DNA from: Amphiscolops sp. MND2022
Taxonomy: Eukaryota
Assembly: GCA_964187785.1 (NCBI GenBank)
Contig: OZ076409.1
Coordinates: 47,990,001 to 48,054,000 of the forward strand
Direction of reading: 5' to 3'
DNA: 64,000 nt
The notes beneath the pieces were generated by a model. That model was not told where the DNA came from. It saw only the letters and a program-made list of their open reading frames with translations, and did no database searches. This document shows positions 6,467-64,000 of the stretch, piece after piece (position 1 is the first letter of the stretch; each line of letters begins with the position of its first letter). Position numbers and translations under genes: made by a program.

Positions 6467-7045
6467 CTATATGTTGTAAGCTTGGTCTATGAACTCGTCT
6501 TGAAGACAATTACGACTAAACTCACTTCTTGAATTGCTTCTGATTTTTTCTTTGCAGTAATTTTCGGCAATATATTCCGGTCTCTCAGCCGGAACATTCC
6601 ATCCCTTTTGTGTCACATGTCCCGATCCGGTCTTAAGGGCATTGTGGATTTGTGGCAATACTTGATTGCTAATTGCATCACTAATTGCCCTCTGGATCTG
6701 AACACTAACACTATTCATCATCTCATCCATTTCGCTAGATATCCTCGAGTTCAGTTCACTTGATAGCCTATTGATCTCTGCACTAAAGTTGGTGCTCGTA
6801 GAATTTTGGCCGAGACCGGTATTGTTACTTGGCCTGATCTCTCTAGGATTTAAATACATGTTTTCCTCAGTATTCTCAGAAACATTACTATTAACCTTTT
6901 TAGGTCTTCTAGCAAGGTTGCTATTCACACTTTCCTCTCTTTCAAGGTGATCTCTACCTAATATTATGTCAAGGTTTTCAATATCGGACAACATTTCTTG
7001 TCCTCTTGATTTTCTTGCCTTCTTTTGTTTTCTAGTAGTAGGCAT
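6467..7045 (-). CDS. LTR-encoded ORF (MPTTRKQKK...), probably the N-terminal part of a retrotransposon ORF1/Gag cut off at the LTR edge
   Basis: 192-aa intact ORF; blocks MPTTRKQKKxRKSRG-E-LSDIENLDI and AEINRLSSELNSRIS-EMDEMMN-V--QIQRAI--AIS-QVLPQI are shared with 63036-63671; the stop codon lies in the flanking TSD, not in the element. Confidence 0.7.
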   Translation of the reverse strand: MPTTRKQKKARKSRGQEMLSDIENLDIILGRDHLEREESVNSNLARRPKKVNSNVSENTEENMYLNPREIRPSNNTGLGQNSTSTNFSAEINRLSSELNSRISSEMDEMMNSVSVQIQRAISDAISNQVLPQIHNALKTGSGHVTQKGWNVPAERPEYIAENYCKEKIRSNSRSEFSRNCLQDEFIDQAYNI

Positions 7046-8264
7046 TGAAGAAAGTCGAGCGAAAATACTTGAATTAATCTTGTTCGGAAAATTAAGTTGA
7101 GTGGGTTGAATGATAAACCGTTTTGGTCATCAAACAGAATCAGAGCAAACAAAATAGATTTGGCTCTCTCTCAGGGGAAGCATGGGTATATGTGGGTCCC
7201 CAGGAGAGTGACAATCACATTTTTTACACTCTTAAATAAATCAGGTGACATACTAAACATGGAACAACATAATTTTGGGATTACATATATTATGGAATGC
7301 GTTTGAACAGATTAAATACATTTTTTAAAACACAAAGATGTGCATCAAAGGGAGGCGGAGGAGTTTGTCCTAGCAATCGTAAACAAATAGTATTTGACTG
7401 ATTATCGGGTCTAGCACTTCAAAGTGTTGTTTATTACAGAAGGAATGTGAGTTATTTCACGGCACGTGCCTGCGCGTGCAAGCAAGTTTATCAAATCCAC
7501 GAAACGGTTTCATGCAAAATTGGAAAAAAAAAACAAAATCGGTGTAGCTCAATATTGTAGCCCGATACGGTTATTTGACTGGGGAACTAGTTGATAATGA
7601 TGGCCGGAATAGGCCTAGGGACAGGTATTCAAGATACCGCTGGTCATTATTAGACACTTTAATCAGACTCAGGTGGCTAGTTAGCCCCTTCTAGTATAAA
7701 TACAGCTACAAAACTGTAAATCATAGGAATATTCATATTTCAAAGCATCACAAATTACTTCTCAAAGCATCGCAAATAACAGTTAGTGAAATGGCCTGAA
7801 CCGGCCATTTGCCTAATGTCTTGTACAGTAAGCACAAAATAGCGTCAGACGGCCATATCCGGCTAATTGAATTGAAAATGTACACAGCACAGTAAATGGA
7901 AGGATCTGATTGGTTAATGTAACGAGCTCAAGTGACGTCTTTTCCGGAATAGAAGTTACGTGCACTTGAACTCGTTTCCGTTCAGCTGTATACTTGTATG
8001 CTTTATCTACTGTATTGAATATTCCATTGCATTGCAAATTCTAATGTATTAAGCATCTCGATTCTCATTTTCAAATGTGAACATTAACAGACTAATAGTA
8101 GGAAACAACAATAATGTACAGAACATACTGAATACCATAGTTTAGGCGGAAAATAGTTTGTTTTGATTTTAGTTTTCAATATATGGGCAAAGTGCCGGGT
8201 ACTACTTCTTGTCCAATTGCGGTCGTTGTGATTCTTGTGCCGTCACAGGCGGCAGCCTGCGACG
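6472..8264 (-). mobile_element. Solo LTR (~1.79 kb) containing an internal ORF
   Basis: Minus-strand termini cgtcgcagg... (degenerate TG) and ...cttacaACA; 5-bp direct repeat CTATA on both sides (6467-6471, 8265-8269); related copy at 63086-64000. Confidence 0.75.
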
Positions 8265-9302
8265 CTATATCTGAAGCGTGTAGAACGTTTTGCCCGGATT
8301 GAAAGAAAACGATAGAAAACGACTATAACAGTCGTGTTTTGTTTTTCCAAAAGCACTAACTAAAAAAGGAAACAAAAAAAACAAGACCACACTTGGAAAT
8401 CGAAAAAAAAACAAATTGAACAGAATAATATTTTCAACTCTTCAAGTTTAGCTACTTTAGTTTGACTAATAATTTCCTTACTTTATTACACATAGAAACG
8501 CATACAAGGAAATATGATCAACTGGAAAAAAATCTCAAATCATGCCTCTCTTTGGAACGACAGGAATTGTTACATGTGCATGATAGCGTAGCTGCTTCAA
8601 AAATTCAAATTTTGTGCACATACAGAAACATTGTTGTTGCAACGTATGCCAACTGATAATTGTAACGATGAATCTGGCCTCTCACCATAGTTGTTGAACC
8701 TTTTCCAGGAAAAGTCTGTTTCTTTTAGATTTTTGAAACTAAATTAAGAAAAAATTTTCTGTCAATGAATGTTTGCAGATAGAACGATTTTTCCAGATAG
8801 AATTGGTCAACTGTGATTATAACTGTGATATCTATAGATACCTTTTTCTTCAAATTTTAATTGGCGGTAAAAATTGACACTTAGACTTACAGAAACTTGT
8901 TTTAACCTGCATCTGTATTTTTAAACTGAAAGATACTTATTCAAATTTATGACAGAGCATCTACGGGTTTTCATTTCTTATTTTCAAAAATCTTCATATC
9001 AGAAATATAGAAAAAAGTTCAAGTGTTTTTCCAACAAGCTGATTGTCAAGAGTGAAAATGTCTAGATTTGATTATCTAAAATACGACCTTTTCAGGCAAT
9101 CAATTGCACGTGCTTCACCGATTCAGTAGTTTTTTTCGTTTGCCACCGTGCGTAAACTTCTTTGAAAATATAGAAAAAAAACTCGAGATTTTAGCTGATT
9201 GCAAAATTCATTTGAAGTCATCAATTAGAATGAAGAAAAGTGTTTTAGGAATCAAACAAAAAACAATACTGTGATTAAGAAATCACCCCAGGGCCGACTT
9301 TA

Positions 9303-12121: not shown

Positions 12122-12215
12122 GACAAAAAGTTCTGATAACTAGTCTTAGCAAACAGTTCTGATAACTATAGTTATCAGAACTGTTTGCTAAGACTAGTTA
12201 TCAGAACTTTTTGTC
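12122..12215. repeat. Perfect 94-bp palindrome (47-bp arms, no spacer)
   Basis: gacaaaaagttctgataactagtcttagcaaacagttctgataacta|tagttatcagaactgtttgctaagactagttatcagaactttttgtc. Confidence 0.97.
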
Positions 12216-14101: not shown

Positions 14102-17100
14102 TGGCGCTGCGAGCTGAAGATGACAATTCTAATTCACCCCTTCCGGGCCTTAGCTATTTCTGGCAGGATGCAGAAAAACCGCCAGGTTATGATTGGGAAC
14201 AGTGGGCCCAACTTTTTGAGGTTGCTGTCCTAGCCAGGCACTCAATCTCAATGACTGAATTGCTGCGAGAGGCAGATGAGCGACAACCGAGAATTGCTGC
14301 CATGATGGGAAATCTAGAAGAAGTACCTGCAAAAAGAAAGTTGGTGAGCTTGTTGTAGATATCCATTGGAAAAACCGGAAGAAAGATGTTGATGGACAAG
14401 TTTCCAAACATCAACATTCTGCTAATCGAACTACGAAATCTAGTACAAAACTGCACGGAATGTTTTCAAACACGCAGAAACCGAACTTTGGATCGACGCA
14501 TTTTCTTGTCAAGGAAGCAAAAACCCACTGAGACACTACGTCAATTTTGGAATGTGCTCAATGGACTTGCAGCCTGTTGTGATTTTGGAAACCAAACGGA
14601 AGGGCTTGTACATGATATTTTTGTCTTGAATATGAAAAATAAACAGGTTCAAGAAAAATCATGTACAGAACCAAAAGAATATCCGGCAGATGCATTACAG
14701 TTCGCTATAGCCTTCGAAGACGGCCTAAAAAGACAAAAATCCTACGGGTATATCAATCAAAGGCCAAAAATCAAAGAAGAGCCTATCTGCGCAGTAAGGA
14801 CCAGCCAGTAGAGAGAATGCTGGAGATGTGGAGCAGGAAATTTTACTTTTGATCACTTGAGCAAATGCAAAGCCCCAAATGCTATGTGTAACTATTGCAG
14901 AAGAAAGGGTCATCTCGAAAGAGTTTGCAACCAAAAGAAAAAAAGACACTAACCCAAAAATTAGCAATACCAGAGGATTTGGCAAACGTGTACAAAGAGT
15001 CGATCCAGAAGATAGTGACGAAGATGAAGGAGACGAGTATATGGTTTTGAAACTGGAAGCAGATAAGGACAAAACTAAACCATATTATATGGAAGGATTT
15101 ATGAATGGCAACAGATTCAAGGCCATGATAGACACTGGCTCTCCAGTAACCATCTTTGCACTGGATGAAGTAAAAGGAATATTGGTGAGAGATGAATTAC
15201 AAGTACGCCCAATGATCGAAGACGAACGCTACGTGGATTTCATTGGAAAACCACTCAAGTTATAGGGATATGTGTTTTGCGAGCTGCAAGTGAATGATAG
15301 CTATGTAAAGAAAGCCAGGATTCTAATTGCAAAAACTGGAATGAAATCGATCATTGGTAGAGAATGGCTATCAGCACTACGGTACAAATTGGTCTCTGAA
15401 GGTGAGTTGGAAGTAAATTCAATAGAAAAAGAAACCGAACTAAGTGCAGAAGCAAAACAATTTGTAAACGAGTTTCCAAAGTTATTCGAAAGAAAAGGCA
15501 AGATAAAAAATCACCAAGTACGGATAAATTTCAAAACGGGCGCAAAAATAACGCAGGAAAAAGGGAGAAGAACCCCCATTCAGCTACAAAAAGCCCTGGA
15601 TGAGGAAATTGGCAGATTGCTAAAAGAGGGCCACATAGAAAGAATTAACGAAATAAAAGATAACGTATTCATTCAACCAACGGTGATAACTGTAAAAAAG
15701 GATCGTTCGGTAAAAATTGCGCTGGATTCAAGAGCACTCAACCAAGCAATAGAAAAAGATAAATATCAAATGCCAAATTTAGAGAATTTGCTAGATATGG
15801 TCGCAGAAAAACTAGATACGGAGAAAGGGGAAGCATGGTTTTCATTCATTGATATGACATATGCTTACGGCCAAGTACCCTTGCATCTATTGACAGCAAA
15901 ACATTGTAATTTTCAAATAATCGGAGGTGAATTCAAAAGAACGTATAGATCTGTGACGGGATTTTATGGTCTGTCGGTTATGCCGACAGAAGGTCAAAAG
16001 TAATGGATATTTTCTTCGCAAAATTTGAAGAAGTGTTTGTGTTTGTAGATGATATTTTAATGGTAACAAAAGGAACAAAGAACGAACATTTAGACAAAGT
16101 GCGGGAAATTTTGAAAACTCTCGATCACGCAGAATTACAATTAAAAGCGGGAAAATGTAACTTCGTGACTAATGAAATTGAATGGCTAGGCTTCAAATTG
16201 ACAGAACAAGGAATTTCGCCAGTAAACACAAAAGTGTAGGGAATTACAGAAAAGCTCCGACTTACAAATTTAAAAGAATTGCGATCCTTTTTGGGAGGAG
16301 TAAACCAATTGAACAACTTTATTCCGGATTTAGAGTTAATATACTCGACATTTAGATCAATTCTAAAGAAAGACGCAAGGTGGATTTGGAATAACGAACA
16401 CGAAAAGGCGTTTCCTAAGGTAAATGACGATGTGAGAAAAGTAGCGGAAGTTACACTTTTCAAAAGAAACAAACCTTTGAGAATAATTTGCGATGCGAGC
16501 AAAAACGGATTAAGAGCGGTATTACAACAGTGTGAAGAAAACACATGGAAACCGATTTCATACGCATCTAGGTTTTTAACAGAACTAGAGTCGAAATATT
16601 CAATAAAAGAATTAGAAATATTAGCTGTAGTTTGGTTAATAGAACATTTTAAAAACTATGTGTACGGAAGATCGTTTGGTATAGTTTCTGATCATGAAGC
16701 ATTGCAAAGTGTGCTAAGGTCCAACAAAGGAAATAAAACGAATTCCAGTCGACTAACACAATGGGTCGATAGGATATTTTTTTGATTTTGCAATAGTACA
16801 TACTCCGGGCAGAACGCTAGGAATGGCAGACTATTTATCAAGACACATGTCAAAAAATGAAGGCGCCGTCGCAAAAGCGGAGGAATTGTTCAATGATTTG
16901 TTTACTTTAAACGTATTAGATGAGATCTCGCCAAAACTGCCACAATCGGCAAATCCGCGTAAGCCAATCAAATCGCAAGAAATTAAGAACGCTAAACGGA
17001 AATTGAACAGCGGCGTGTTGACGATTTACCAGCCTGTACAAACAATTGACGCGTGTAAAGAAGCTGCGAAGACGCCAATTAGCAAAACAATGACAGATTT

Positions 17101-17773
17101 TAGAGACTTGTCCAAATTCAAAATTAGTAACGATTACGTCAAAGCAAATGCTGAAAATGAGAGAAAATTAGAGATAGACCCAAAGATCGAAATAGAGCAC
17201 GAAGATTTCAGCGATGAGGTGGACTCCACAATTCTAATCCGAGAAAGGGTACGTGGGACAATGTTAGAAGGAGCGTGCAAGCGTGTGAAAGGCAAAGTAG
17301 TAGGTCAGTCAGAACAAACAATCACAGTGCTGACAAGAGGGAACAAAAGCGAGACTGTTTACTCAGAGAGAGACGTGGCGAAAACCACAAAATTGCCAAG
17401 TACAAGCAAGATGCCAAAAAGAAGAAAAGGGGCAATAGAGACAATAGTAAAACAAAACAAAAATAGAAAAGGAAAAAGAAACCAAGACGAAAGAGATATA
17501 GGCAAATGGTCCACAAGCAGTCCCTTTCCTGATGAAGGCAAAAAGATTGTAAATAGCCCTGTAAATAATGAAGAAACTGAAGAAGGGGAAGAAATGGAAA
17601 CACAAAGCCAAATTGCCGAAGAAACTGAAAGAAACGAGACTGAACCGCAACTGGAAATACAAAAGGAAGAAGCTCAGAATGAAGAAGAAAGGATTGACGA
17701 ACTACCAAAGATTCCTGTAAAGGGAACCGTGAAATGGAAAAAACGAAGCTCAGAACGAGTTTTTGTGGAGTGA
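14101..17773 (+). pseudogene. gag-pol pseudogene (zinc knuckle, protease, RT, RNase H; integrase core missing)
   Basis: CWRC...H...C and CNYCRRKGHLERVC knuckles (~14815-14930), protease MIDTGS (~15125), RT LDSRALN/IDMTYAYGQ/FVDD, RNase H ICDAS...ELEILAV; stops at ~14356, 14809, 15263, 16001, 16237, 16783 plus frameshifts. Confidence 0.92.
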
Positions 17774-40860: not shown

Positions 40861-43800
40861 GTTAGATGTATAGAAGTCATAGCAAGTTTCGAAGCTAAAA
40901 ACAAGTTTCTCAATAAGTATTAACAACTTCTCCAGTTAGAACAAGTCACGCATTTTTGTATTTCAACGGGAGATAATCATTAACTTCTGATGTTTATTTT
41001 GTAAATCACTTTTGTGTTAACTTCTCTGAATACAGTTGAATTGATACTACCAACTCTTCATCTCACTCAGCCTCAAAAGTCAAGAGGTTATGCGGCCTTA
41101 TCCAATCATCTGAAACTAAGGTTGCTGTCAGCTTTCGATCAGAAGTCACTTGCTAAAGATAGACTGAAAAATGAAGCGAATGATGGCAAGGAGAAGCGAG
41201 AAGTGAGAAGTCAAGCAGAACGAAACCATCTTTTTTTCCAATGAACCACTACGCCATGCAGTCTGAAGTCAACTTTCAGAGATGAGAAGCGAGTGAATTT
41301 TTTAAAAAATCAGACTCAAATTTTCTTGATGCTTTTGTAAATTTTCTTGCTGTTTTTCCTAGGATGAGTAGAGTTGAGTTTGAAGTTGAGTGAGAGTACA
41401 CATAGGTTAAACAATGTTTTGAAAAATTTTCTCGGAAGATTCCAAAAACACCAGTGAAATATATCTGGGCTTGATAAAAAATCTTGGAGACAATTTTTCT
41501 GACAAACTTTTCGATAGCAAGTCTTTGTTTAAGTTGATTTCCAACGCGCACGTCGCTATGTACTGCATAGCATGACGGGAAGTAAGAAATTTTCTGAGAT
41601 TAGTTTTTGTTTCAAAACGCCTCTCTTTCGAGGTTTTTGTAAGTAAGTTGTTTTTGCGATCCAGAGATACGTTGTTTTATGTAAATCGTTCAAAGATACA
41701 TTCTCACGAGGTCAAGGAGCACAAGTTCAGGTTCACAAGGCTTAGCGTTTTGAGTGTCTTCGTTAAGTTACACAACTCAGACATAAAATGACAAACCACC
41801 GTACTGTAGAGTCTAACTTAGAAACGTTGTTGTTTTCAAGAAAAGACGAGGACTTAAAACATTTTGCTGAACGTTTTGATGCTCAGCTTCATTTTTTAAA
41901 ATCGAGGACAGTCCTTCTTGATCGAGAGAGTTTGCCTGAGGAAACAGATGCTAATGTCGCTGGTGAGCAAAACAAGTTGAAAGAAAAACGGCTCGCAGTT
42001 TGGTGTGAACTGGTGCAATCTCTAGATAGAAAATCATTGAGTTTGGTAAAAACAGCGAATCTTAACGCCACTCTGGCTTGGAAATTATTTCAACACTGTT
42101 TCAAAAGTCGTGAACGTCCTCGTATCCTTCAACTTTTGAATAAGTTAACGAACCTTAGAATGAACTCATAAGAAAGTACGCGTGATTATTTGATGAGAGC
42201 TGAAGAACTTCAACTTAGACTAACCGATGTTGGAGAGAATGTTAGTGATCAAATGCTATCTTCGGTAGTCCTAAAGGGTTTGCCGAACAGTTTTGCAAGT
42301 TTCGTAACTGTCTTCAAGTTTTCGCATGAAGCTGAAACATTAGCTGATCTAAAACGAGATCTTTTGAATTTCGATAGTGATAGTTGCCGAAGTCAAACCA
42401 ACCAAGGAAGAAGTTCACATTTCACTAAAGACGTGAAATGCTTCAATTGTGGTAAAATTGGCCACCGACAAAATGAATTGCAGAGCAAAATTGTCTGTCA
42501 TAGTGTGTTACAAATGTGGTGAAAAGACCTCAAGGCGAATGAGTGCCTTAAAAAGAAAAATAGGTCGAAACAGCAGCGCCGCGTGAGGCGGCTCAAAACA
42601 AAACTTTTTAACGAAGCGAAATGACAGTAATCTAACATCTGAAAAACAAGGTATTTCTTTTCATACTAGCCAAGCACTTTCGACGGGTAAGAACATAGAA
42701 CTTCTGATAGACAGTGGCTGCACGTGTCACATGATAAAGGACGCTGAATTGTTCAGCGACTTAGACGTTTCGAAAATGGGTAAAGTTCAATGTGCGAACG
42801 GAACAGAATCCAGTTTTCAGGAGAGGATCCGTTCATTTTTTGGCTAAAGACAATCAAGTTCAAGATCAAATCTTGGAACGTGAAGAATCGTTGTACGTTC
42901 CCCAAAACACAAAAAACCCAAATTCGATAAAGAAACTGAGCGAACAAAATGCGAGCGTTCATGCTGATGTAAACCCTCGCATAGTTCAGGATGATAGATG
43001 TTTTCCATTAAAGTGCGAAAATAACTTGTTTTATTTGCAAGTTGACTGTTTGCATGAGCAAAACAATGTCGCGACTGCAAATCTTTAACTATGGCATGAA
43101 AGAATGGCTCACAATAACACCATTGATGTTCGAAATTTGGCAAAGGCTTTCTTCCATAGTAGATAAAAGAGACAAACCTTGCGATGTGTGTAACACAGAA
43201 AAAGCCGAGCGGTTACCGATAAGCCGTCAAGTAGCAACTAGAGCTAAAAAACCTTTAGACATAGTTCACGTGGATATATCGCCTGTGAACACGACGTCGA
43301 TAGATGACTTCAAGTACGCTCTAGGATTCGTTGATAGCTTCAGCAGACTCGGTGCTGTTTATCTACTAAGAAGAGCCGAAGTCGGAACGAAGCTTTTGAG
43401 GTTCAAAGATGAGCTTGGAAAAAGTCGCAAGGTAGTCACTGATAATGCTAAAGCGTTCGACTTTGGAAATATCGCGGACATTTGCTAACAGCAAGGAATT
43501 CATTAGGAATTTACTTGTGAATACACTGCCGAACAAAACGGTAAAAAAGAACAGTTTTGGGGAACCATGGGGGTGATGGCTAGGTATCTGTTGAAAACAG
43601 CAGGCTTGCCTGAATGTTTTTGATCGTTTGCATACCAAGCAGCTTTCCATATAAAAACCGATGCCTTCAATCTGCTCATGGCACAACACCGTCTGAAAAA
43701 TTATTTGACAAGACACCAGATGTGTCTTTTTCTCGAGTTTTTGGGTGTCAAGCATTCTTGTACTTAGAGAAACCAAAACGAAACAAGTTTGATGTAGAGC

Positions 43801-46085
43801 TTTGGAAGGTTTTTTATTCGACTATAGCAACAATTCTAAGTCATATTTGATCGGATTTTTAATAATAAATTCAACAAGACTAGTTTTCCAGGTAAAACAC
43901 ACTTCGCAAACACTGAAAGTGACAATGATTTTTTCTCCGAACTCAACGAAAACGGGAGTGGAATAGAGATGCAAAACACAGAATCAGTCGGAGATACAAA
44001 CTTTATCAGCGATGTGATTGAGTTGAAAAACGGTGATTTAGGCGGTAATCCAGAAACGTTGGTCACCGAAAGGTCAAACGAAAAAATAACACATATTCCT
44101 TCGCATAGTTTGACTGTGCATACTACGACTAGATACGGACGAAAAGTTAAGTCGCCGAACAGATTTACCCCAGGTACGAGCAGCAACTTGTCTTACAATT
44201 TAGGTTCGTCTGAGTTCGATGAAATTGAAACGCTCGCTTACCATTGAAATTATGTTGATCATGAGTTACCGAAGCGCTTGAAGAAGCGCTCCCTTTGCCA
44301 GAATGATATCGTGTGATGAAAGCGAAATACGATTCTTTACAAAGAAATGAAGTGTGGGAGCCTGCTGAATTGCCCGAAAGAAAAAACTTTGTACCAGGTA
44401 AAGAGCATTTTGCATTTAAGCGAAAAATAAATAGAAAACATTAAGCACAAAGCAAGATACGTAGCTAGAGGATTCAAACAAAGACAAGATGTTGACTACG
44501 ATCAAACATATAGTCCGACTGTGAAAATGGTAACACTTCGAGTTTTGCTGAGTTTGGCAGTTCAGAAAGAAATGAAGTTGAAACAGTTAGACATAAAAAC
44601 CGCTTACTTGAACGCAGGTATAGAGGAAGAATTTTTTGTAGATCAGCCACCAGGTCCCGTTGAGAAAAATGCCAACGGCAAAAGCTATGTTTGTAGATTG
44701 AAAAATCACTTTATGGATTGAAGCAATCCGGTCACAGTTGGTTCAATACACTTAGAGATTTCTGCTTAGCTCACAGTTCAAGCCGAGCATAAGTGATCCC
44801 TAATGGTTCTTGAGGGAACGAAACGGTCATAAGGACTTTGTAGCAAGTTGGGTAGATGATTTAGTCTACTGTAGTGACAATAGTAACTATTACGAAACGT
44901 TTGAGAAAACACTGAGTAAAAAGTTTTTTTTCAATGAAGTAGATGACTTGAACTGGTTCTTGGGAATGCAAATTAGACATGAAAAAGGCAGACTAGAAAA
45001 ATCCCAAGAAAATACATCAAAAATTTCCTTGAAACCTTGGAAAGAAGGATGCCAAAGGACTTTTCACGCCTGTTGCTGAAAAGCAACAAATCAACAGGTC
45101 AGACTCTCCGGACGAAGGCAGCCAAGAACAAAAGGAGATGAAAAAGTGTAATTTTCGTGGGTTGATTGGTTGCTTGAATTACTTAGCGAACACGACGACA
45201 CCTGATATAACTTTCGCTGTGAGAGCCTTAAGTCGTTACGTTCAAAATCCAGGCCGAAAACATTGGTAACTAGGAAAACACATCTTGAGGTATCTAAAGG
45301 CAACAAAGTGTAGGAAACTGACGTATAGAAAATCCGAAAAACTTGAGCTCACAGGTTTCAAAGATGCTGATTGGGTAGGAAAGTTAGATGATAAAACGTC
45401 CATCAGTGGCCTTCGCTTCTTTCTAAACCCAGAATCAGGAGCTGTTAGTTGGAATTCTAAGTTACAGACAACGGTAGAGACTTCAACAGCTGAGCTGCTG
45501 AGACGGAAGCAATGTCGTTTATTTGCAGCTTCTCAATAACTTGAGTTTCTACGAGGACTAGCAAATGAGATAGGCATAGATACGGAAAAGCCTATTAAGA
45601 TACATGTGGACAATCAGGCTTGTGTCACGACACCCAAAAATGCAGTGAACTTCCAGAAAGTGAAGGATTTTGCAATCCAGTTGAGCTTCATACAACAAAA
45701 GTAGGATTGCGACGTTTGGATGTTGAGTTATGTCCAACCAGTGAAATGATTGCTGATTTGCTAACTAAACCGTTGGCAAATTCAAATTCAAGTTTAAAAT
45801 GTTCAGCAAAAGACTTTCCGGAGAATATAACTTGCAATCGAGCTCCGAAAAGGGGAAGTTTTCAGATATATAGAAGTCATAGCATGTTTCGAAGCCAGAA
45901 ACAACTTTCTCAATATGTAAGAACAACTTCTCCAGTTAGAACAAATCACGCTTTTTAGAATTTCAGCGGGAGATAATCATTAACTTCTGATGTTCATTTT
46001 GTAAATCACTTTTGGGTTAACTTCTCTGAATACAGTTGAATTGATACTACCAACTCATCGTCTCACTCAGCCTCAAAAGTCAAGA
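40861..46085 (+). mobile_element. Full-length decayed Ty1/Copia LTR retrotransposon
   Basis: Two ~225-bp LTRs (40861-41085, 45861-46085; about 19 differences by eye); PBS GGTTATGCGGCC similar to the copia GGTTATGGGCCC; PPT aaaaggggaag before the 3' LTR; TSD not evident. Confidence 0.95.
41788..45790 (+). pseudogene. Copia gag-pol pseudogene (gag, PR, IN, RT, RH order)
   Basis: CFNCGKIGH knuckle, LIDSGCTCHM protease, CDVC...KPLDIVHVDI integrase, KARYVARGF/QLDIKTAYLNA/WVDDL RT, DADW and IADLLTKPL RNase H; many stops and frameshifts. Confidence 0.93.
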
Positions 46086-46946
46086 GTTTTATCATTGAAA
46101 TTGCCCGAAACCACATTTTTTCGCCATACAAATTGCGGATGACCCTCTATCACAGAGTGTTACAAAACTTTAATTTAGAGTGTTACAAAACTGAGTGAAT
46201 GAAGAAATTAAATTTTAAATTTTTTGTATTTACGCACTCTTTTCTTCCAATAAAAAAAGCGGCCAGCAAAAAATTCAGAAGCATTTCGGTCTGTAAGAGT
46301 AGTTAGTAGATGTGATGAATAGTTAAAGTGCGGAAGAAAAAAATTTTTTAAGCTTTGTGGAAGTTAACTGTATTAGTTCGGGCCTAAAACTTTAGAAAAA
46401 AAATTATGTCGTCAGAAAATGAATGGGATTTTGAGTTTAGTGGGGGCACTGACTTTAGCGTTCTAATCTTGTTTACTTTTCGTCTATGTAAAAAACTTTG
46501 CATCAAAAATCTACCATTAAGTGTTCTAGCGATACTGCAGGCGCCAAGATTGTCGCAATGAATACGAACCATAACAAGTGGTCGAATACTGACGAATCGG
46601 CAATCTCTAAGTTTTTCAAAGCCTGAAGTAAAGCTATGAGGTGACAAATCGCGAACTGCATAAGTCGGCACCCAGCCCAAGCCTCATAAACATAAAACGA
46701 GTTTCAAAACTTTAGGAACTGTTTTTGGAATTTTTCAAAATCTCGGTGTCGAAAAAGAAGACGGGAGGCCTAATATGTCTTTTTTTTCAACGGCAAACAT
46801 GAAAAACCCGGCTTGCCTCATTGCAAAGCGAGTCTCGCACACCATAATAAGTAAAAATAAAACAAAACTTAGAAAAGCAAAACAACTTATTCGATGATCA
46901 CTCCCGCAGAATTGGGGATATTAAGTTAAAGAGGTTTTTAAGAGGT

Positions 46947-51549: not shown

Positions 51550-54500
51550 GCTTATTGAGCGCAGCTGAAAATGGAAAAAGACAATACCATAAACTCCTTT
51601 ATATTGAAGGGAAGGCCAGAGAATTTCATAACTTGGAAAACAAGATTCAGTGCCTGTTTACTTACTAAAAACATACAAATAAACCAAGATGATGTCACTG
51701 AAGAAAGTAGAGCTGCAAACCATGTGATAGTCGTTCGTGCGTTGGTCATGCAACTAGACGACTTTCTACTGCAAGCTGTCATTTCTTGTGGAGAAAACGA
51801 TGGTGTCAAAGTATGGGCACATTTGTATCAGAAATATGGGCAAACAAATGTGTCGCGGATTCTTTCGATATGGAAGCCGTTCATCGACTCAATAGTTGAA
51901 CCAGTTCAAACCGTTTCTTGTTATCTAATTAGATTACATTTTTGATTTTCAAACTAGAAACCGCTAAAGAAGTTATTACTGGAAACTTTAAAATTGCAAC
52001 AGTTTTTAAAACCCTACGTGAAGAATTCGAGTTCTATTATGCAGCAATTCAATTACAAAAATTGATCATAACGGGTTGAAGAACAAATTAATTGAAAAAT
52101 GCTTATGCCTACCGACCAGAAATTTATTCACAGAAGAGAAACTGAACAGGGTGGTTGACAAATTTCAGTTTGACAAACCCAAGTAAGACCAACAGGTGTT
52201 CAAATGTGCTAATTTTGGAAAAATCATAAATCGCAAATTTGTTTTGAACCTGAGGCAAGTTGCACAAACCCAACGAGAAAACTTCAACAGCTTCTGGGCT
52301 CGCGAAAAACGATTAAAACCTAGTTTTTAGTCGCCGCATTTTAGTAGAAAATGTGCCCGACTCTTACAGTGTGTAGTTTTTTTTTTAGACACGAAAGGTC
52401 CACTTTTTTGTTCAGTTCATTTGTTCAACAACTTGGGGGAGGTTCAAAACGCGGAGGTTCAAAACGCGGAGGTTCAAAACACTCGAAATCTAAGAACCTT
52501 GCTTTCAGTTCACACTGAAGGGTCCACTTTTTTGTTCATTTGTTCAACTTTTTAGCCGAGATAATTTAGTTACGATATAACGTTTCAAAGTTCGGATATG
52601 ACGTTTTGAAGGTTCGGATATAACCTTTTCTTTTCTCGTATAGCAGTATCGACGTTTCCCCAAAATTCATAACTTGTTGAACCTTGGATATGGCGCCGAA
52701 TTGGGCCGGTCCCGGGTTGTTGGCTCTCATTACAACTGTGAGAACAAACTATTGAATGGCAGTGGCTGTACTTATCATATTTTAACTGATCAAAGTTTTT
52801 GTTAAAGAAATCAACCAGCCTTCTATTGTTGTATTTGTTTGCAATGCAGATCTGTCAAAACAAGAAACTCAAGGCATTGGTTCAGCGAAACTAGATGTAA
52901 TAGATGCCAATGGTACACATGTTTAAATAATTCTTGAGCAAACTCTTCATGTTCCAGTGAGGAAAGTCAATATTTTATCAGAGGTAAATTTGTTTGAGAA
53001 GAACAATTCGCTCCACTTTGATTTGAAAGAAAGCAATTTCATTCATGAAAACAAAAAAGAAAGATTTGTGTTGTTTTCTGGTGACGATTTGTATCACCTC
53101 ATTTTAGCTCAATCTGAATCGAAAGCTTTTCACAATGATATGTTGTGGCAACATGCCTCAAATGACTGTTAGGAAAGATGAAACACAACATTTCCAACTA
53201 TGATCTTGAAACATTCTCTCGCAGTGAGAACAGATAGCATTGTCAACTCTGTGCTTTTATTAAAAGAACAATTGAGAAGGTTCCAAAGACATTACGCAAT
53301 ATGTCGAAAAAAGTTCGATATACTTCCTTTCAATATCTGTGGAGGTTTTCCAAAGTCTAAAAATCAACGTTTTATGGTGTCTTTCAGAGATGATGATTGA
53401 AAATTGTCCAGAATATATTTCATGAGAAAAAAACAGAATTCCCTGAAAAATTCAAAAACATCGTGCTTACGTTGGCAAAAAATGTCAAATCTCTTCGTTC
53501 AGATAATGGAACTGTCAAGCATTTTGTGAAATTGGCATCAATGAAGGCATTCAAAAGGAATTCAGTTCACCTCAAAGTCAATTCCAAAAGGGAATCGCGG
53601 AACAATATTTGCAAACAATTTGTGACATGACAAAATGTTTTCTCTCACAATCAAATCTCAAAAAAAACTTTCCGGCTTCGAGCTGCTGACATTGCTTGCT
53701 ATATTCGAATTGGTTTTGTAACAAAAACAACAGCTCAGACAAACTACATTATCAACTGTTCTTCGAAAAAATCCTCCAGTGAAACATTAAAGGCGTTTCC
53801 GTTTCGTGGCTTGTAACAGAACGATGTCTAATCCATGTAAACCTGATTCAAAAAGATTACAAAATTGATGATTTGTGAATTTGAAAAAGAGAATAAAAGT
53901 TATTTTCAGTATTCAATGAGAACGCGGGTCATCTGTAGCTGTAATGTGAAACTTGACGAACAACAGTATAATATTCGATGTCGAAGGATTCCAGTCCACC
54001 ATTCACTTTTCAGCCTGAAAAATCAGATTACTGGAATACTAACAGTCCTTAATCAATTTGGTACTATTAAACTCGGCATTTTACCTCTACAACAAACTTG
54101 TATGAATCAACACATAACGAAAAAACTAACTCGCTTCGGATACCCTCTCTCACCGATAATGAAACGTTGGTCAATCAAGTAACAACATCTTTTGAAAAAG
54201 GCCGCGTAAAGACAACAACGTTTAGGCAATCCACGTCAGGAGACAAGAAGAAAGCCAGACGCCCGGTAAGCATCGGGATCTATTCCGCCCTCTTCGCATT
54301 CACCGACTGAGTCGAAGCTACTTTGGGTCTAAAGATTGAGATCTAAAAGTTAGTGATTCTAGATCTTATTCCCTTTAGATCTTATTTTCGTCCCGAAATT
54401 TTAGATCTTATTCGCTTTAGATCTTTTCCTTTTTCTGACTTAAGATATTATTCCCCCTCTAAGCTAAGTGAGTGAGAACTAAGTGAGTGAGAGAGTGTAG

Positions 54501-55170
54501 GTAGATAAGAGTGAATGAAGGTAAGAGTAGGTTTTTGGCAGAATTTGGAACAAAACGCATCACAGAACATGATTTTCTTCAACCATTGAAAACGTTGGGT
54601 CGGAAAATAATAACAGATTCCACGTGTTCTTAACAGTGTCATCTACAGGAAAAAGATACTTAGACCTATTCGGATGCTATGAAATCAATGAATTGTGAAT
54701 GTTGGAAACAAGCGATAACTTCAGAATTGGGTACACTTAGAAAACTTGATGTTTATGATCTTGTGGATAAATCAAGAGAATTGCCTTTAAAGAAAGCAAA
54801 GTGTTCTTTGTTACAAAAAACTCCAGAAGGGTCAATTTCTCAACACAAAGCCAGTTATGCTTCAAAAGGGTTCTCACAAGTGGTCAAAACTGCACCGAAA
54901 CTTTCGTACACACTGTGTCACTTTCGAAAATACGTGTATTACTGGCATTAGCGTCATAAACGTCAATGAAAAGTCGTCAAAAAGATGTCTTTTCTCAATT
55001 CTCCAATAAAGGATGATATCTATTTGGAACAAACTCCCAGGTCCATTGAAGAAGGGGAAAGACGACGAAGTCTGGAAATTGGAAATTTTGTGGTATGATC
55101 TTGAACAAGCAAGTCGCGCATGACATAGAAATTTAGCGAACATTTTAACAAAACAACTCAAGTTCACGAA
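51550..55170 (+). mobile_element. Older, heavily decayed Copia element
   Basis: Gag-like FITWKTRFSACL (51571-51945), protease-like xSGCTYHI (~52755), integrase LRSDNG (~53492), RT WKQAITSELGTL...KASYASKGFSQ and QASRA; LTRs not resolved. Confidence 0.8.
52324..52721 (+). mobile_element. HINE-like element inserted in the second Copia
   Basis: ttttagtcgccgcatttt...aaaatgtgcccgact stem-loop start, ggcgccgaatt...gttgtt end, internal GGAGGTTCAAAACGC x3. Confidence 0.6.
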
Positions 55171-57055
55171 ATTTTACATATCTTCGTTTTTTTGTCCGAC
55201 GATTTGGTAAAGCAAACCAAAACCTTTAATCTTGGGTGGAAATCACGTTCTTTCCTTGTTGACCATTTTTAACATTCCAATCTACAAAGTTTGTCGGAAA
55301 TTTTAAAAAAATGCCTAAAATTTTTGAAAACAAGGAAATTTTGGAGTTTTTGTCATCTTCGGTGTCAATTTGAGACATCTTCATTTTGAAAAATGCAATA
55401 AAGTCTTTCGAAAAGCCTACTGAACAACACATTCTTTCCGTTTTGACCATTTTCAACGTTCCAATCCACAAGTTCTGTAAAAAATTTGGAAAAAAACTTG
55501 CAAATAATCTTTGAACATGTCGAAGGATTCCAGTCCACCATTCACTTTTCAGCCTGAAAAATCAGATTACTGGAATACTAACAGTCCTTAATCAATTTGG
55601 TACTATTAAACTCGGCATTTTACCTCTACAACAAACTTGTATGAATCAACACATAACGAAAAAACTAACTCGCTTCGGATACCCTCTCTCACCGATAATG
55701 AAACGTTGGTCAATCAAGTAACAACATCTTTTGAAAAAGGCCGCGTAAAGACAACAACGTTTAGGCAATCCACGTCAGGAGACAAGAAGAAAGCCAGACG
55801 CCCGGTAAGCATCGGGATCTATTCCGCCCTCTTCGCATTCACCGACTGAGTCGAAGCTACTTTGGGTCTAAAGATTGAGATCTAAAAGTTAGTGATTCTA
55901 GATCTTATTCCCTTTAGATCTTATTTTCGTCCCGAAATTTTAGATCTTATTCGCTTTAGATCTTTTCCTTTTTCTGACTTAAGATATTATTCCCCCTCTA
56001 AGCTAAGTGAGTGAGAACTAAGTGAGTGAGAGAGTGTAGGTAGATAAGAGTGAATGAAGGTAAGAGTAGGTTTTTGGCAGAATTTGGAACAAAACGCATC
56101 ACAGAACATGATTTTCTTCAACCATTGAAAACGTTGGGTCGGAAAATAATAACAGATTCCACGTGTTCTTAACAGTGTCATCTACAGGAAAAAGATACTT
56201 AGACCTATTCGGATGCTATGAAATCAATGAATTGTGAATGTTGGAAACAAGCGATAACTTCAGAATTGGGTACACTTAGAAAACTTGATGTTTATGATCT
56301 TGTGGATAAATCAAGAGAATTGCCTTTAAAGAAAGCAAAGTGTTCTTTGTTACAAAAAACTCCAGAAGGGTCAATTTCTCAACACAAAGCCAGTTATGCT
56401 TCAAAAGGGTTCTCACAAGTGGTCAAAACTGCACCGAAACTTTCGTACACACTGTGTCACTTTCGAAAATACGTGTATTACTGGCATTAGCGTCATAAAC
56501 GTCAATGAAAAGTCGTCAAAAAGATGTCTTTTCTCAATTCTCCAATAAAGGATGATATCTATTTGGAACAAACTCCCAGGTCCATTGAAGAAGGGGAAAG
56601 ACGACGAAGTCTGGAAATTGGAAATTTTGTGGTATGATCTTGAACAAGCAAGTCGCGCATGACATAGAAATTTAGCGAACATTTTAACAAAACAACTCAA
56701 GTTCACGAAATTTTACATATCTTCGTTTTTTTGTCCGACGATTTGGTAAAGCAAACCAAAACCTTTAATCTTGGGTGGAAATCACGTTCTTTCCTTGTTG
56801 ACCATTTTTAACATTCCAATCTACAAAGTTTGTCGGAAATTTTAAAAAAATGCCTAAAATTTTTGAAAACAAGGAAATTTTGGAGTTTTTGTCATCTTCG
56901 GTGTCAATTTGAGACATCTTCATTTTGAAAAATGCAATAAAGTCTTTCGAAAAGCCTACTGAACAACACATTCTTTCCGTTTTGACCATTTTCAACGTTC
57001 CAATCCACAAGTTCTGTAAAAAATTTGGAAAAAAACTTGCAAATAATCTTTGAAC
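53978..57055. repeat. Apparently perfect 1539-bp tandem duplication (53978-55516 / 55517-57055)
   Basis: Identical ORFs offset by 1539 bp (54098/55637, 54679/56218, etc.); 2-bp AT microhomology at the junction. Confidence 0.95.
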
Positions 57056-57850
57056 ATTGGAAAATTTTGATATTTTTGTCAGTTTCGGCGTCAATCTGAA
57101 ACATTTCAATTCAGAACATTGCATTTGTCTCCTCGTAAGAGTTCACTGGAAAACCAATCTTTTTCCTTGTTGGCGCTTTAAAACTTTCCAATTCACGAAG
57201 TCTGTCAACAATTTGACAAAAAATGCGTAAATTGAAATTTTGCGGGTTTTGTTATTTTCGATGTCAATTTGAGATTTTTTTCATTTGGAAAACAGCAATC
57301 ATCTCTTCGGAAATGCCTACTGGACAACCAATCAGTGCCATATTGTGCGTTTTCAACATTTTAATCTACGAAGTCTTTCGAAATTTGATAAAAATTGCAT
57401 AAAAACAATAAAAATCGGGATTTTTTTGGTTTTTTGTCATTTTCTGTTACTTTGAAACATTTTTCATCCAAATAACTGCAATAATCTTTTCAAAGGAGCC
57501 TATTGGACAACGAATTTGTGACTTGTTGAACGTTTTAAACATTCTTATCCACGATATCCATCGAAAAGTTGATAAAAATTGCATTAAAACGTCAACAATT
57601 GAAAATTTTTGTAAATTTTCTCGTTTTGTGGTCATTTCTGGGTCATTCTAGGGTCCCTGGGGTCAACTAAAAAGTCCAGAAATCTCCACAATTACATATA
57701 GCACGAAGCTAAATTTATGTCAGTTGAATTCCATGGGTAACACCCTTAAAGTTAAATTTAAATTTGGTGCTAGGCAAGTTTTGTTAAACAACCGTTTGAT
57801 TTAAATATGTTTTTTCCTTTCCCATATATGAAATATGGGCGGAAAATAAA
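56700..57850. repeat. ~180-190 bp diverged tandem array plus conserved family terminus
   Basis: tttgtca..ttcggtgtcaatttgagacat units at ~56888, 57074, 57249, 57433; ends gttgaattccatgggt...tttcccatatatgaaatatgggcggaaa. Confidence 0.7.
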
Positions 57851-63035: not shown

Positions 63036-63671
63036 TCAATTTTTTAACAACCCTTTTAATTTTCCGCCCATATTCCATATGGGAATGTCATGAACGTTAC
63101 CGATGGACGGTCTACCTAATCGGTATCCATCATGTTGTTCATTTCTACAGTCAGCTTTAGCGTTTGGAATTCGCTTTTCCTCGGCATTTGCTTCCGCTCT
63201 CTCAACTGGGACTTCCCATCCCCTTCTGGTCTCTCGGCCCGATCCGGCCATTATGACATTCTGTATCTGAGGCAATACTTGACTGCTGATAGCCTCATTA
63301 ATGGCCCTTTGGATCTGCGTCCCAACATTATTCATCATTTCATCCATCTCACGGGATATCCTAGAGTTCAATTCGCTAGACAACCTATTTATCTCAGCTA
63401 GTGAGTTTGCTTCAACTGAGTTTTGGCCAAAATCGGCACTTGTCCTAGGTTCATCATTTCTGCAATTAGAAAATAGGCTTTCGCCCTCGTTGTCCAAGTT
63501 ATTACTTATGACACTTTCTCTCCTCCCAACGGAGTTATTGTCTAAACTCCTTTCTCTTTCAGTTCCATTGTAACGATCGCCTCCTAACATTATGTCTAGA
63601 TTTTCGATATCAGAAAGGATCTCTAGTCCTCTGGACTTTCTAGTCTTCTTTTGTTTTCTTGTAGTAGGCAT
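63036..63671 (-). CDS. LTR-encoded ORF (MPTTRKQKK family), reading 16 codons into the flank
   Basis: 211-aa intact ORF homologous to 6467-7045; homology ends at the LTR edge. Confidence 0.7.
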   Translation of the reverse strand: MPTTRKQKKTRKSRGLEILSDIENLDIMLGGDRYNGTERERSLDNNSVGRRESVISNNLDNEGESLFSNCRNDEPRTSADFGQNSVEANSLAEINRLSSELNSRISREMDEMMNNVGTQIQRAINEAISSQVLPQIQNVIMAGSGRETRRGWEVPVERAEANAEEKRIPNAKADCRNEQHDGYRLGRPSIGNVHDIPIWNMGGKLKGLLKN

Positions 63672-64000
63672 AAGGAAACTTCGAGTATAAAATTAAATTA
63701 GATTATATCTCGAAAATAACAGTGAAACCGTTTGTACTAATATGATAGTCTTTTTCAGAAGAGAGCAAATAAGGAAGTGTCTCCTCTCTCAAAGGCACGG
63801 GTATTTATACCCCCGAAAGAGTGACACTCTCATTCCTTACATTCTTTGACTAAGACAATACCATATGACTGCATTTTTGATGGTCACAGGATGAACGCTA
63901 TCCATTTCAAATATTATACATCAAAGGGACAATCATTCAACCGTTAGCACCGTTTACATATTTGGCAAAATATTTTCATTGAACAGGTATTTGTTGATGT
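63086..64000 (-). mobile_element. Second ORF-bearing LTR (runs off the window), in the last intron of the tetraspan gene
   Basis: Minus-strand end ...gttcatgACA at 63086; block tgtcactct..gggg..ata.ccc.tgc..tgagagag shared with ~7165-7213; TATAAATA at ~63802-63809. Confidence 0.7.

Follow-up and report, generated by a model that had tools for sequence, protein, structure and literature searches.

A Ty3/Gypsy-type retrotransposon family of Amphiscolops sp. in which gag appears to begin inside the long terminal repeat

Within a 64,000-nucleotide stretch of the Amphiscolops sp. MND2022 genome (contig OZ076409.1, positions 47,990,001 to 48,054,000; hereafter the window), a solo long terminal repeat (LTR) at 6472..8264 on the minus strand carries an open reading frame (ORF) of 192 codons that, judged by sequence comparison, is the N-terminal third of the ~570-residue Gag of a 16-kb Ty3/Gypsy-type family. 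The reading we favor, with a probability of roughly 0.8, is that gag of this family initiates in the LTR and is duplicated by reverse transcription, and that the window solo is a likely nonfunctional remnant. Because gag would start in the 5' LTR and read through the primer-binding site (PBS), reverse transcription would copy about 190 gag codons into both LTRs, so that every LTR copy carries the front third of gag; the window solo was likely left behind by LTR-LTR recombination.

The LTR-coded ORF and its continuation into gag

The window element is a single LTR of 1,793 bp with the target-site duplication (TSD) CTATA on each side (6467..6471 and 8265..8269) and with neither a PBS nor internal sequence. 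Its ORF (6467..7045, minus strand) starts at the ATG at 7045, runs for 574 nt to the terminal ACA of the LTR, gains one residue from the flank and ends at a TAG within the TSD at 6467..6471. An initial annotation of this DNA had described the segment, its TSD and the ORF lengths to the LTR end (574 nt here and 586 nt in a second copy), and all of its numbers hold. TG...CA ends are the family norm in the full elements, but the window solo begins with CG. The layout recurs, with a TSD of its own, in a distant solo in locus L046 (35% identical).

The second copy, from 63086 onward, had been taken for another stand-alone LTR; it is really the in-window part (63086..64000, minus strand) of the 3' LTR belonging to a full-length element, 15.9 kb in size, which extends past the window. 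The TSD of this element, TTCCC on the element strand (63081..63085), is matched at the 5' flank in L041, where the 5' LTR lies at L041:3779-5488, and the LTR pieces are 99.1 and 99.3% identical. In this 3' LTR the Gag N-terminal ORF (63036..63671, minus strand) runs from the ATG at 63671 to the LTR end at 63086, carries a 16-residue flank-derived tail after the 586 nt in the LTR, and encodes a protein 60% identical to that of the solo over 164 residues. The gag of the element is open for 570 codons; pol, a third ORF (ORF3) and an antisense gene are interrupted. The initial annotation stated that protein blocks are conserved between the two copies while noncoding parts barely align; within the window the ORF alone indeed aligns as DNA (69%), but the first 89 nt of the LTR, which are the end of ORF3, are 78% identical between the copies.

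A genome search with the ORF gave 150 listed matches, all at E<=2e-59, out of 14,432 first-look candidates, so the ORF is no chance frame; many of those listed form same-strand pairs in which the upstream frame has ~580 codons and the downstream one ~220. The exact LTR-start motif occurs 5,208 times genome-wide (0 for the reversed control) and the exact LTR-PBS junction 2,039 times (1 for the control), both counts being lower bounds in a family with many diverged copies. Among 30 loci fetched by the capsid core, a single frame runs from the ATG across the ACA-TGG boundary into gag in 25, as had been proposed, and the in-LTR portion of gag in these read-through loci is 568-595 nt, always 3n+1, or 189-198 codons. 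Four of the other five loci lack the N terminus in frame, and one has an altered junction. The PBS directly abuts the LTR and matches the genomic tRNA-Leu(CAG) 3' end over 12 nt; the PBS codons are invariant, silent sites included, in 13 subfamily representatives. The tRNA-end pattern has 840 genomic matches, two of six fetched being called tRNA-Leu(CAG), and a dense tandem run of such matches with a spacing of about 236-296 bp lies at G000:C8:35.59-35.64 Mb.

Ten full elements, taken from the 150 best capsid matches for their long open gag frames, all have the ORF in both LTRs, the duplication that had been predicted, together with identical 5-bp TSDs. They are 16.0-16.5 kb long; their LTRs measure 1.73-1.96 kb, and the two LTRs of one element share 99.0-99.8% identity. 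Pfam domains on one gag-pol frame are, in order, DUF1759, zf-CCHC, aspartyl protease, RVT_1, RT_RNaseH, Integrase_H2C2 and rve. The longer database homologues of the ORF have ~570 residues, many with DUF1759, and two C-terminal CCHC knuckles. In Gag itself zf-CCHC stays under the Pfam cut-off (E 0.003) with two knuckle motifs visible, a Gag profile matched only knuckles in the PDB (NCp10 at E 0.007), and a metagenome scan gave 10 loci, each with only a short match to the knuckle region.

It is highly improbable that the ORF represents an independent accessory gene of the LTR, like sag of mouse mammary tumor virus (MMTV), or that the family belongs to BEL/Pao. The LTR-coded part has no Pfam match above cut-off, and DUF1759, on which a BEL/Pao assignment would be based, is borderline (25.0 versus a cut-off of 25.4 bits). 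However, the frame is continuous with the capsid and the knuckles, of which there are two, not three, and pol has RT_RNaseH, Integrase_H2C2 and Integrase_p58_C, while Peptidase_A17 and DUF5641, which are associated with BEL elements, are absent among the 15 listed families. The Ty3 enzyme is also among the best solved reverse transcriptase relatives in the PDB, outranked by two non-Ty3 enzymes that we take to be of foamy type and caulimovirus type; at least 120 sequence relatives of the reverse transcriptase were listed, none with a name.

The LTR-coded third of Gag would consist of a disordered basic N terminus and one helix of ~55 residues that may serve coiled-coil self-association in Gag assembly. 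In the window solo, the basic block of codons 1-30, which is the best-conserved one, lies at 6956..7045 (minus strand) and contains a putative nuclear localization signal; the long conserved helix, ~residues 83-138, lies at 6632..6799 (minus strand) and was modeled on the homologous residues of the neighboring full element. AlphaFold2 with a 38-sequence alignment was confident only for helix 86-141 (predicted local distance difference test [pLDDT] 80-85; mean 40.8), and the capsid region was poorly folded in the model (pLDDT <50). Three copies of residues 80-150 of the neighboring Gag scored 0.77 against 0.03 for the best control, with at least 90% of contacts agreeing between runs and a pLDDT of at least 83. 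The mark for self-association is reached by 21/30 solved microbial homo-pairs, 0/23 single chains and 7/16 animal pairs, and the choice of three copies was ours and lies outside the calibration of the score. The model thus supports, but does not show, that the helix self-associates as the coiled coil of the initial annotation.

A TATA-like box stands 129-148 nt upstream of the ATG in all 12 young 5' LTRs. It lies within the loop of an inverted repeat in 18/23 copies (z<-2) versus 0/69 upstream controls when mononucleotide shuffles are used; dinucleotide z values in three copies were -4.5, -3.4 and -0.9, and RNAalifold gave 0 consensus pairs for this hairpin. No AATAAA or ATTAAA between the box and the LTR end is conserved in 12 young LTRs, and a poly(A) signal ahead of the ATG was dropped as a candidate, AATAAA being present there in only 1 of 12. 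In the window solo the inverted repeat is at 7157..7218 (minus strand) and the TATA position is degenerate. The box may be a promoter element or a hairpin-enclosed 3'-end signal; either role would place the ORF in the R-U5 part of the LTR, with the U5 label given initially being putative. If transcription starts near the box, R-U5 would span ~0.7 kb of almost wholly coding sequence, as would minus-strand strong-stop DNA.

Selection and decay of the LTR-coded ORF

The ratio of replacement to silent substitution rates (dN/dS) between subfamilies was calculated from 27 junction-bearing gags, of which 3 were dropped for length and 24 thinned to 13 representatives; the values are pooled pairwise, from pairs that are not independent. 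The LTR-coded part gave 0.22 (codons 1-30, 0.035; linker, 0.38; helix, 0.11; last 35 codons, 0.61) and the internal part of Gag 0.072 (capsid core, 0.013), which supports purifying selection on the LTR-coded ORF in active lineages. On the three points that the initial annotation had named as decisive, the full elements have consistent ends and TSDs, an ORF in both LTRs rather than once downstream of the PBS, and a dN/dS well below 1 between subfamilies.

Changes after insertion tell a different story. Comparing the 5' and 3' LTRs within 13 elements, a contrast that records post-insertion changes only and from which codons with three differences were dropped, we counted 73.5 silent versus 234.5 replacement changes, a pooled dN/dS of 0.95 (p=0.69 against neutrality). 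When 24 loci were chosen by the DNA upstream of the ORF and not by the ORF itself, none of the 10 delimitable ORFs was intact, each having lost phase or acquired stops, and in L086 (identical to L002), an eleventh locus, there is a stop. Flank-derived tails of 50 solo or 3' LTR copies had a median of 10.5 codons in frame versus 12 in the other frames (p=0.68), and at the window solo the flank supplies one residue. The initial proposals that solo LTRs are a source of new genes or regulators and that the insertion site supplies a useful C terminus are thus not borne out: change after insertion is neutral, the tails are random and no longer than in other frames, and the TATA position of the window solo has degenerated. 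It seems instead that the two window copies resemble each other because selection acts on the copy in the 5' LTR of active master elements and not on solos.

Several observations weigh against this account. The neutral estimate comes from LTRs of whole elements, not solos, and is carried mostly by 5 old LTR pairs, with a range of 0.52-1.27; frameshift edges may have inflated the replacements, and without the noisiest pair it would be ~0.87 (hand arithmetic). Thirteen of the 24 DNA-picked loci are not delimitable, and L089 among these has a stop-free match over 178 residues. As many as 27 of the 50 solo or 3' LTR copies are still open, many of them young, and the simulated chance of a neutral frame surviving 4.5% post-insertion divergence with frameshifts is only 0.02. 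Finally, the window solo and L002, the nearest copy found (90% identity upstream of the ORF), give a dN/dS of 0.44 (p=0.01) and have no indel in the ORF versus 8 gap openings in the 1.2 kb upstream, and private changes at otherwise invariant sites number 2/8 in the solo versus 4/9 in L002, a weak contrast.

These points bear on the possibility that domestication has turned the window solo into a host gene or an exon donor, which we consider very unlikely. Its 192-codon frame is open despite ~9% divergence from L002 upstream of the ORF, and the dN/dS to that sibling is low; however, the stop-bearing L002 branch shows an equal silent excess, so the pattern points to divergence in active lineages. 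Simulated neutral survival of an open frame falls from 0.78 to 0.31 as substitution rises from 1 to 4.5%, or from 0.44 to 0.02 with frameshifts, so an open frame would not be unusual in a neutral copy that has diverged by 1-2% (0.19-0.78). The TATA position of the solo is degenerate, only a single residue comes from the flank, and the copy was ascertained for being open; its frame would have survived because the insertion is fairly young and because an open copy was picked. Selection on the window solo as a gene is thus unlikely, and lone copies are likely decaying leftovers. The conserved architecture is real, while the new-gene or regulator idea lacks support; the window solo looks like an ordinary remnant.

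A trans-dominant role is a further possibility, doubtful but less so than domestication: the 3'- or solo-LTR fragment would join full-length Gag through the coiled coil and limit transposition as copy number rises. The LTR-coded part holds the whole predicted self-associating helix, young 3' LTRs keep the promoter-like box, ATG and open frame unchanged, and the genome contains thousands of LTRs. Restriction by truncated Gag is known in Ty1 (PMC7175516; PMC4599808), where the restricting protein, p22, comes from the other half of Gag. Such an effect needs no selection on single copies and so is compatible with neutral decay. On the other side, the tail at the C terminus is random, the frame is lost in old copies, and the conservation is fully explained by the Gag role of the 5'-LTR copy. 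A more elaborate version, in which the LTR acts as a copy-number sensor, is also improbable and offered as speculation: thousands of 3' and solo LTRs would make the Gag fragment, whose trimeric coiled coil would damp assembly, in a family with priming other than from a polypurine tract (PPT) and with LTRs coding at both ends.

For LTR-internal initiation of gag, the practical meaning is that a ready-made cassette of promoter, ATG and ORF is present in each 3' or solo LTR. Such fragments are already listed by gene callers as stand-alone proteins (many 70- to 250-residue unnamed matches) and can lead annotation astray.

ORF3, the 3' LTR junction and the antisense gene

ORF3 is a sense frame of about 240-260 codons whose end occupies the first 89 nt of the 3' LTR. 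Open stretches of at least 170 residues are present in 8/10 full elements, and the listed genome matches number at least 150. The stop falls at codon 28 in 37/70 distinct LTR starts, and dN/dS among these tails is ~0.2 in a sample selected for being open. The window solo carries the ORF3 tail, the last 28 codons and stop, at 8176..8262 (minus strand), within the first 89 nt of its LTR.

No PPT precedes the 3' LTR: the last 20 nt contain 5-7 purines at 13/13 junctions, and the exact CCCGYHG-LTR junction occurs 1,190 times genome-wide. The exception is a distant-subfamily LTR (L048) with an 8-purine run. In recently active copies the 3' LTR junctions (e.g., L040:795 and L123:5400) are ORF3 coding and pyrimidine rich, and five 3'-LTR junction motifs stand in tandem with 1,545-bp spacing at G000:C1:47790865-47797065. 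The four acidic motifs of RNase H look present in the family pol by eye. The absence of a PPT together with 99% LTR identity and exact TSDs implies an unusual plus-strand primer. Because the 77 nt next to the LTR, if not more, are retained in nonautonomous copies, a cis signal is likely to lie there. Three other explanations were rejected. A splice-acceptor reading of the pyrimidine-rich CAG-TG junction is ruled out by CTG and TCG variants and by the ORF3 coding; a tRNA-Leu piece as plus-strand primer, suggested by the resemblance of the junction to an anticodon arm, is post hoc and is broken by the same variants; and a purine run ~60 nt upstream follows from R/K-E-A codons and does not form a fixed tract.

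Between pol and the 3' LTR lies an antisense gene of roughly 1,200 codons (L040:2550-6726; L110-L129) that has a C2H2-like finger and shows GT-AG signals for introns. Its first intron has a GTAAG donor and a YAG acceptor in 6/6 copies, and the gene is likely spliced. It diverges from ORF3 across ~1.1 kb, which suggests an internal two-way promoter. Neither ORF3 nor the antisense gene has a Pfam match above cut-off, a PDB match or a usable match in the Atlas, and the structural model was of low confidence; a likeness to hAT transposases that have a BED-like finger is tentative.

Young nonautonomous derivatives (L021-L026 and L039) have LTRs of 2.18-2.19 kb that are 99.7-100% identical; they keep gag and have lost most of pol and the antisense gene. 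In three of them host coding fragments (L024:5662-6972; L025:5797-6924; L026:3152-4279, the last by shared frame) replace a segment of 160-180 nt that would lie immediately ahead of the final 77-100 nt of the internal region. The captured pieces are of an SLC28-type nucleoside transporter and a TRPM SLOG domain, and they were likely acquired by mRNA capture via template switching. Additionally, family LTRs were duplicated with their flanks at L027, L028, L029, L030 and L031 (2- to 6-kb tandem duplications), so that near match pairs are not always the two LTRs of one element.

The window also holds a decayed, unrelated Gypsy-type element at 14386-17773 (plus strand), with protease and reverse transcriptase matches 28% identical to the family pol, and a Copia-type remnant at 40864-46089, with gag and integrase matches between 226-nt direct repeats 5,000 bp apart and 92% identical. 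A perfect tandem duplication of 1,539 bp at 53978-57057 (100% identical) is recent or an assembly artifact, and a perfect 94-bp palindrome with no spacer is located at 12122-12215.

Comparison with known systems

By its LTR, PBS, Gag and pol features the family is of Ty3/Gypsy type, an assignment based on sequence features. Against the definition of Metaviridae, direct TG...CA LTRs with identical 5-bp TSDs are present in 10/10 full elements, the PBS lies next to the 5' LTR and is complementary to the tRNA-Leu(CAG) 3' end, Gag with CCHC is upstream of pol, and pol has the order protease-reverse transcriptase-RNase H-integrase with Gypsy-type RNase H and integrase domains. The family also shares with canonical Ty3/Gypsy elements a slippery A-run at the gag/pol overlap, where a -1 frameshift would occur. 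It departs from them in three respects: gag starts in the LTR and not after the LTR and PBS, with 568-595 nt inside the LTR in 25/30 loci; the LTR contains the end of a third ORF; and a PPT is missing at 13/13 junctions. Since the PPT is absent, we file the family as a Gypsy-type variant and not as a canonical member. This animal-type LTR family, very abundant and recently active, thus breaks two textbook rules, on gag position and on the PPT, and annotation that depends on a PPT would overlook it.

The human immunodeficiency virus (HIV) gene nef and MMTV sag are retroviral genes that end or lie in U3, and ORF3 resembles them in that it begins in the internal region and extends over the first 89 nt of the 3' LTR. 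A PPT ahead of the 3' LTR is typical (PMC7175516; PMC7264820). The long region between pol and the 3' LTR and the antisense ORF are shared with the plant elements Retand, Grande and RIRE2; for Retand, the available text of PMC11963269 and PMC7264820 gives 2.9-6.6 kb and conserved antisense coding of unknown function, and contains no mention of a gag start in the LTR. Unlike the Retand type, our family has no TRP28 match, and its antisense gene has GT-AG intron signals. Searches of open papers with exact phrases, Repbase and GyDB entries lying outside their scope, yielded no family described with a gag start inside the LTR or lacking a PPT; the available parts of PMC2774666, PMC4402516, PMC5408684, PMC6431247, PMC13524379 and PMC8396678 contain no gag-in-LTR case. 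The young derivatives are like TR-GAG (PMC4350172), a gag-only nonautonomous LTR element, in keeping gag and both LTRs without most of pol, but their LTRs are 2.2 kb with coding overlap, and some carry animal-type host gene fragments.

The closest likeness in gag position is to Ty1 of Saccharomyces cerevisiae (Ty1/Copia), in which gag also starts in the 5' LTR and the PBS lies within coding sequence. The Ty1 LTR is about 334 bp long, giving roughly 14 codons of gag overlap. Its transcript starts at LTR nt +238 (10.1101/176248), and its 5' untranslated region is 53 nt with reverse-transcription signals in the GAG region (PMC3592414). The restriction factor of Ty1 is Gag's C-terminal half from an internal transcript and not an LTR product, and the family described here differs further in its Gypsy-type pol order and tRNA-Leu(CAG) primer. 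Above all, its overlap covers 189-198 codons, a third of Gag including the whole predicted oligomerization helix.

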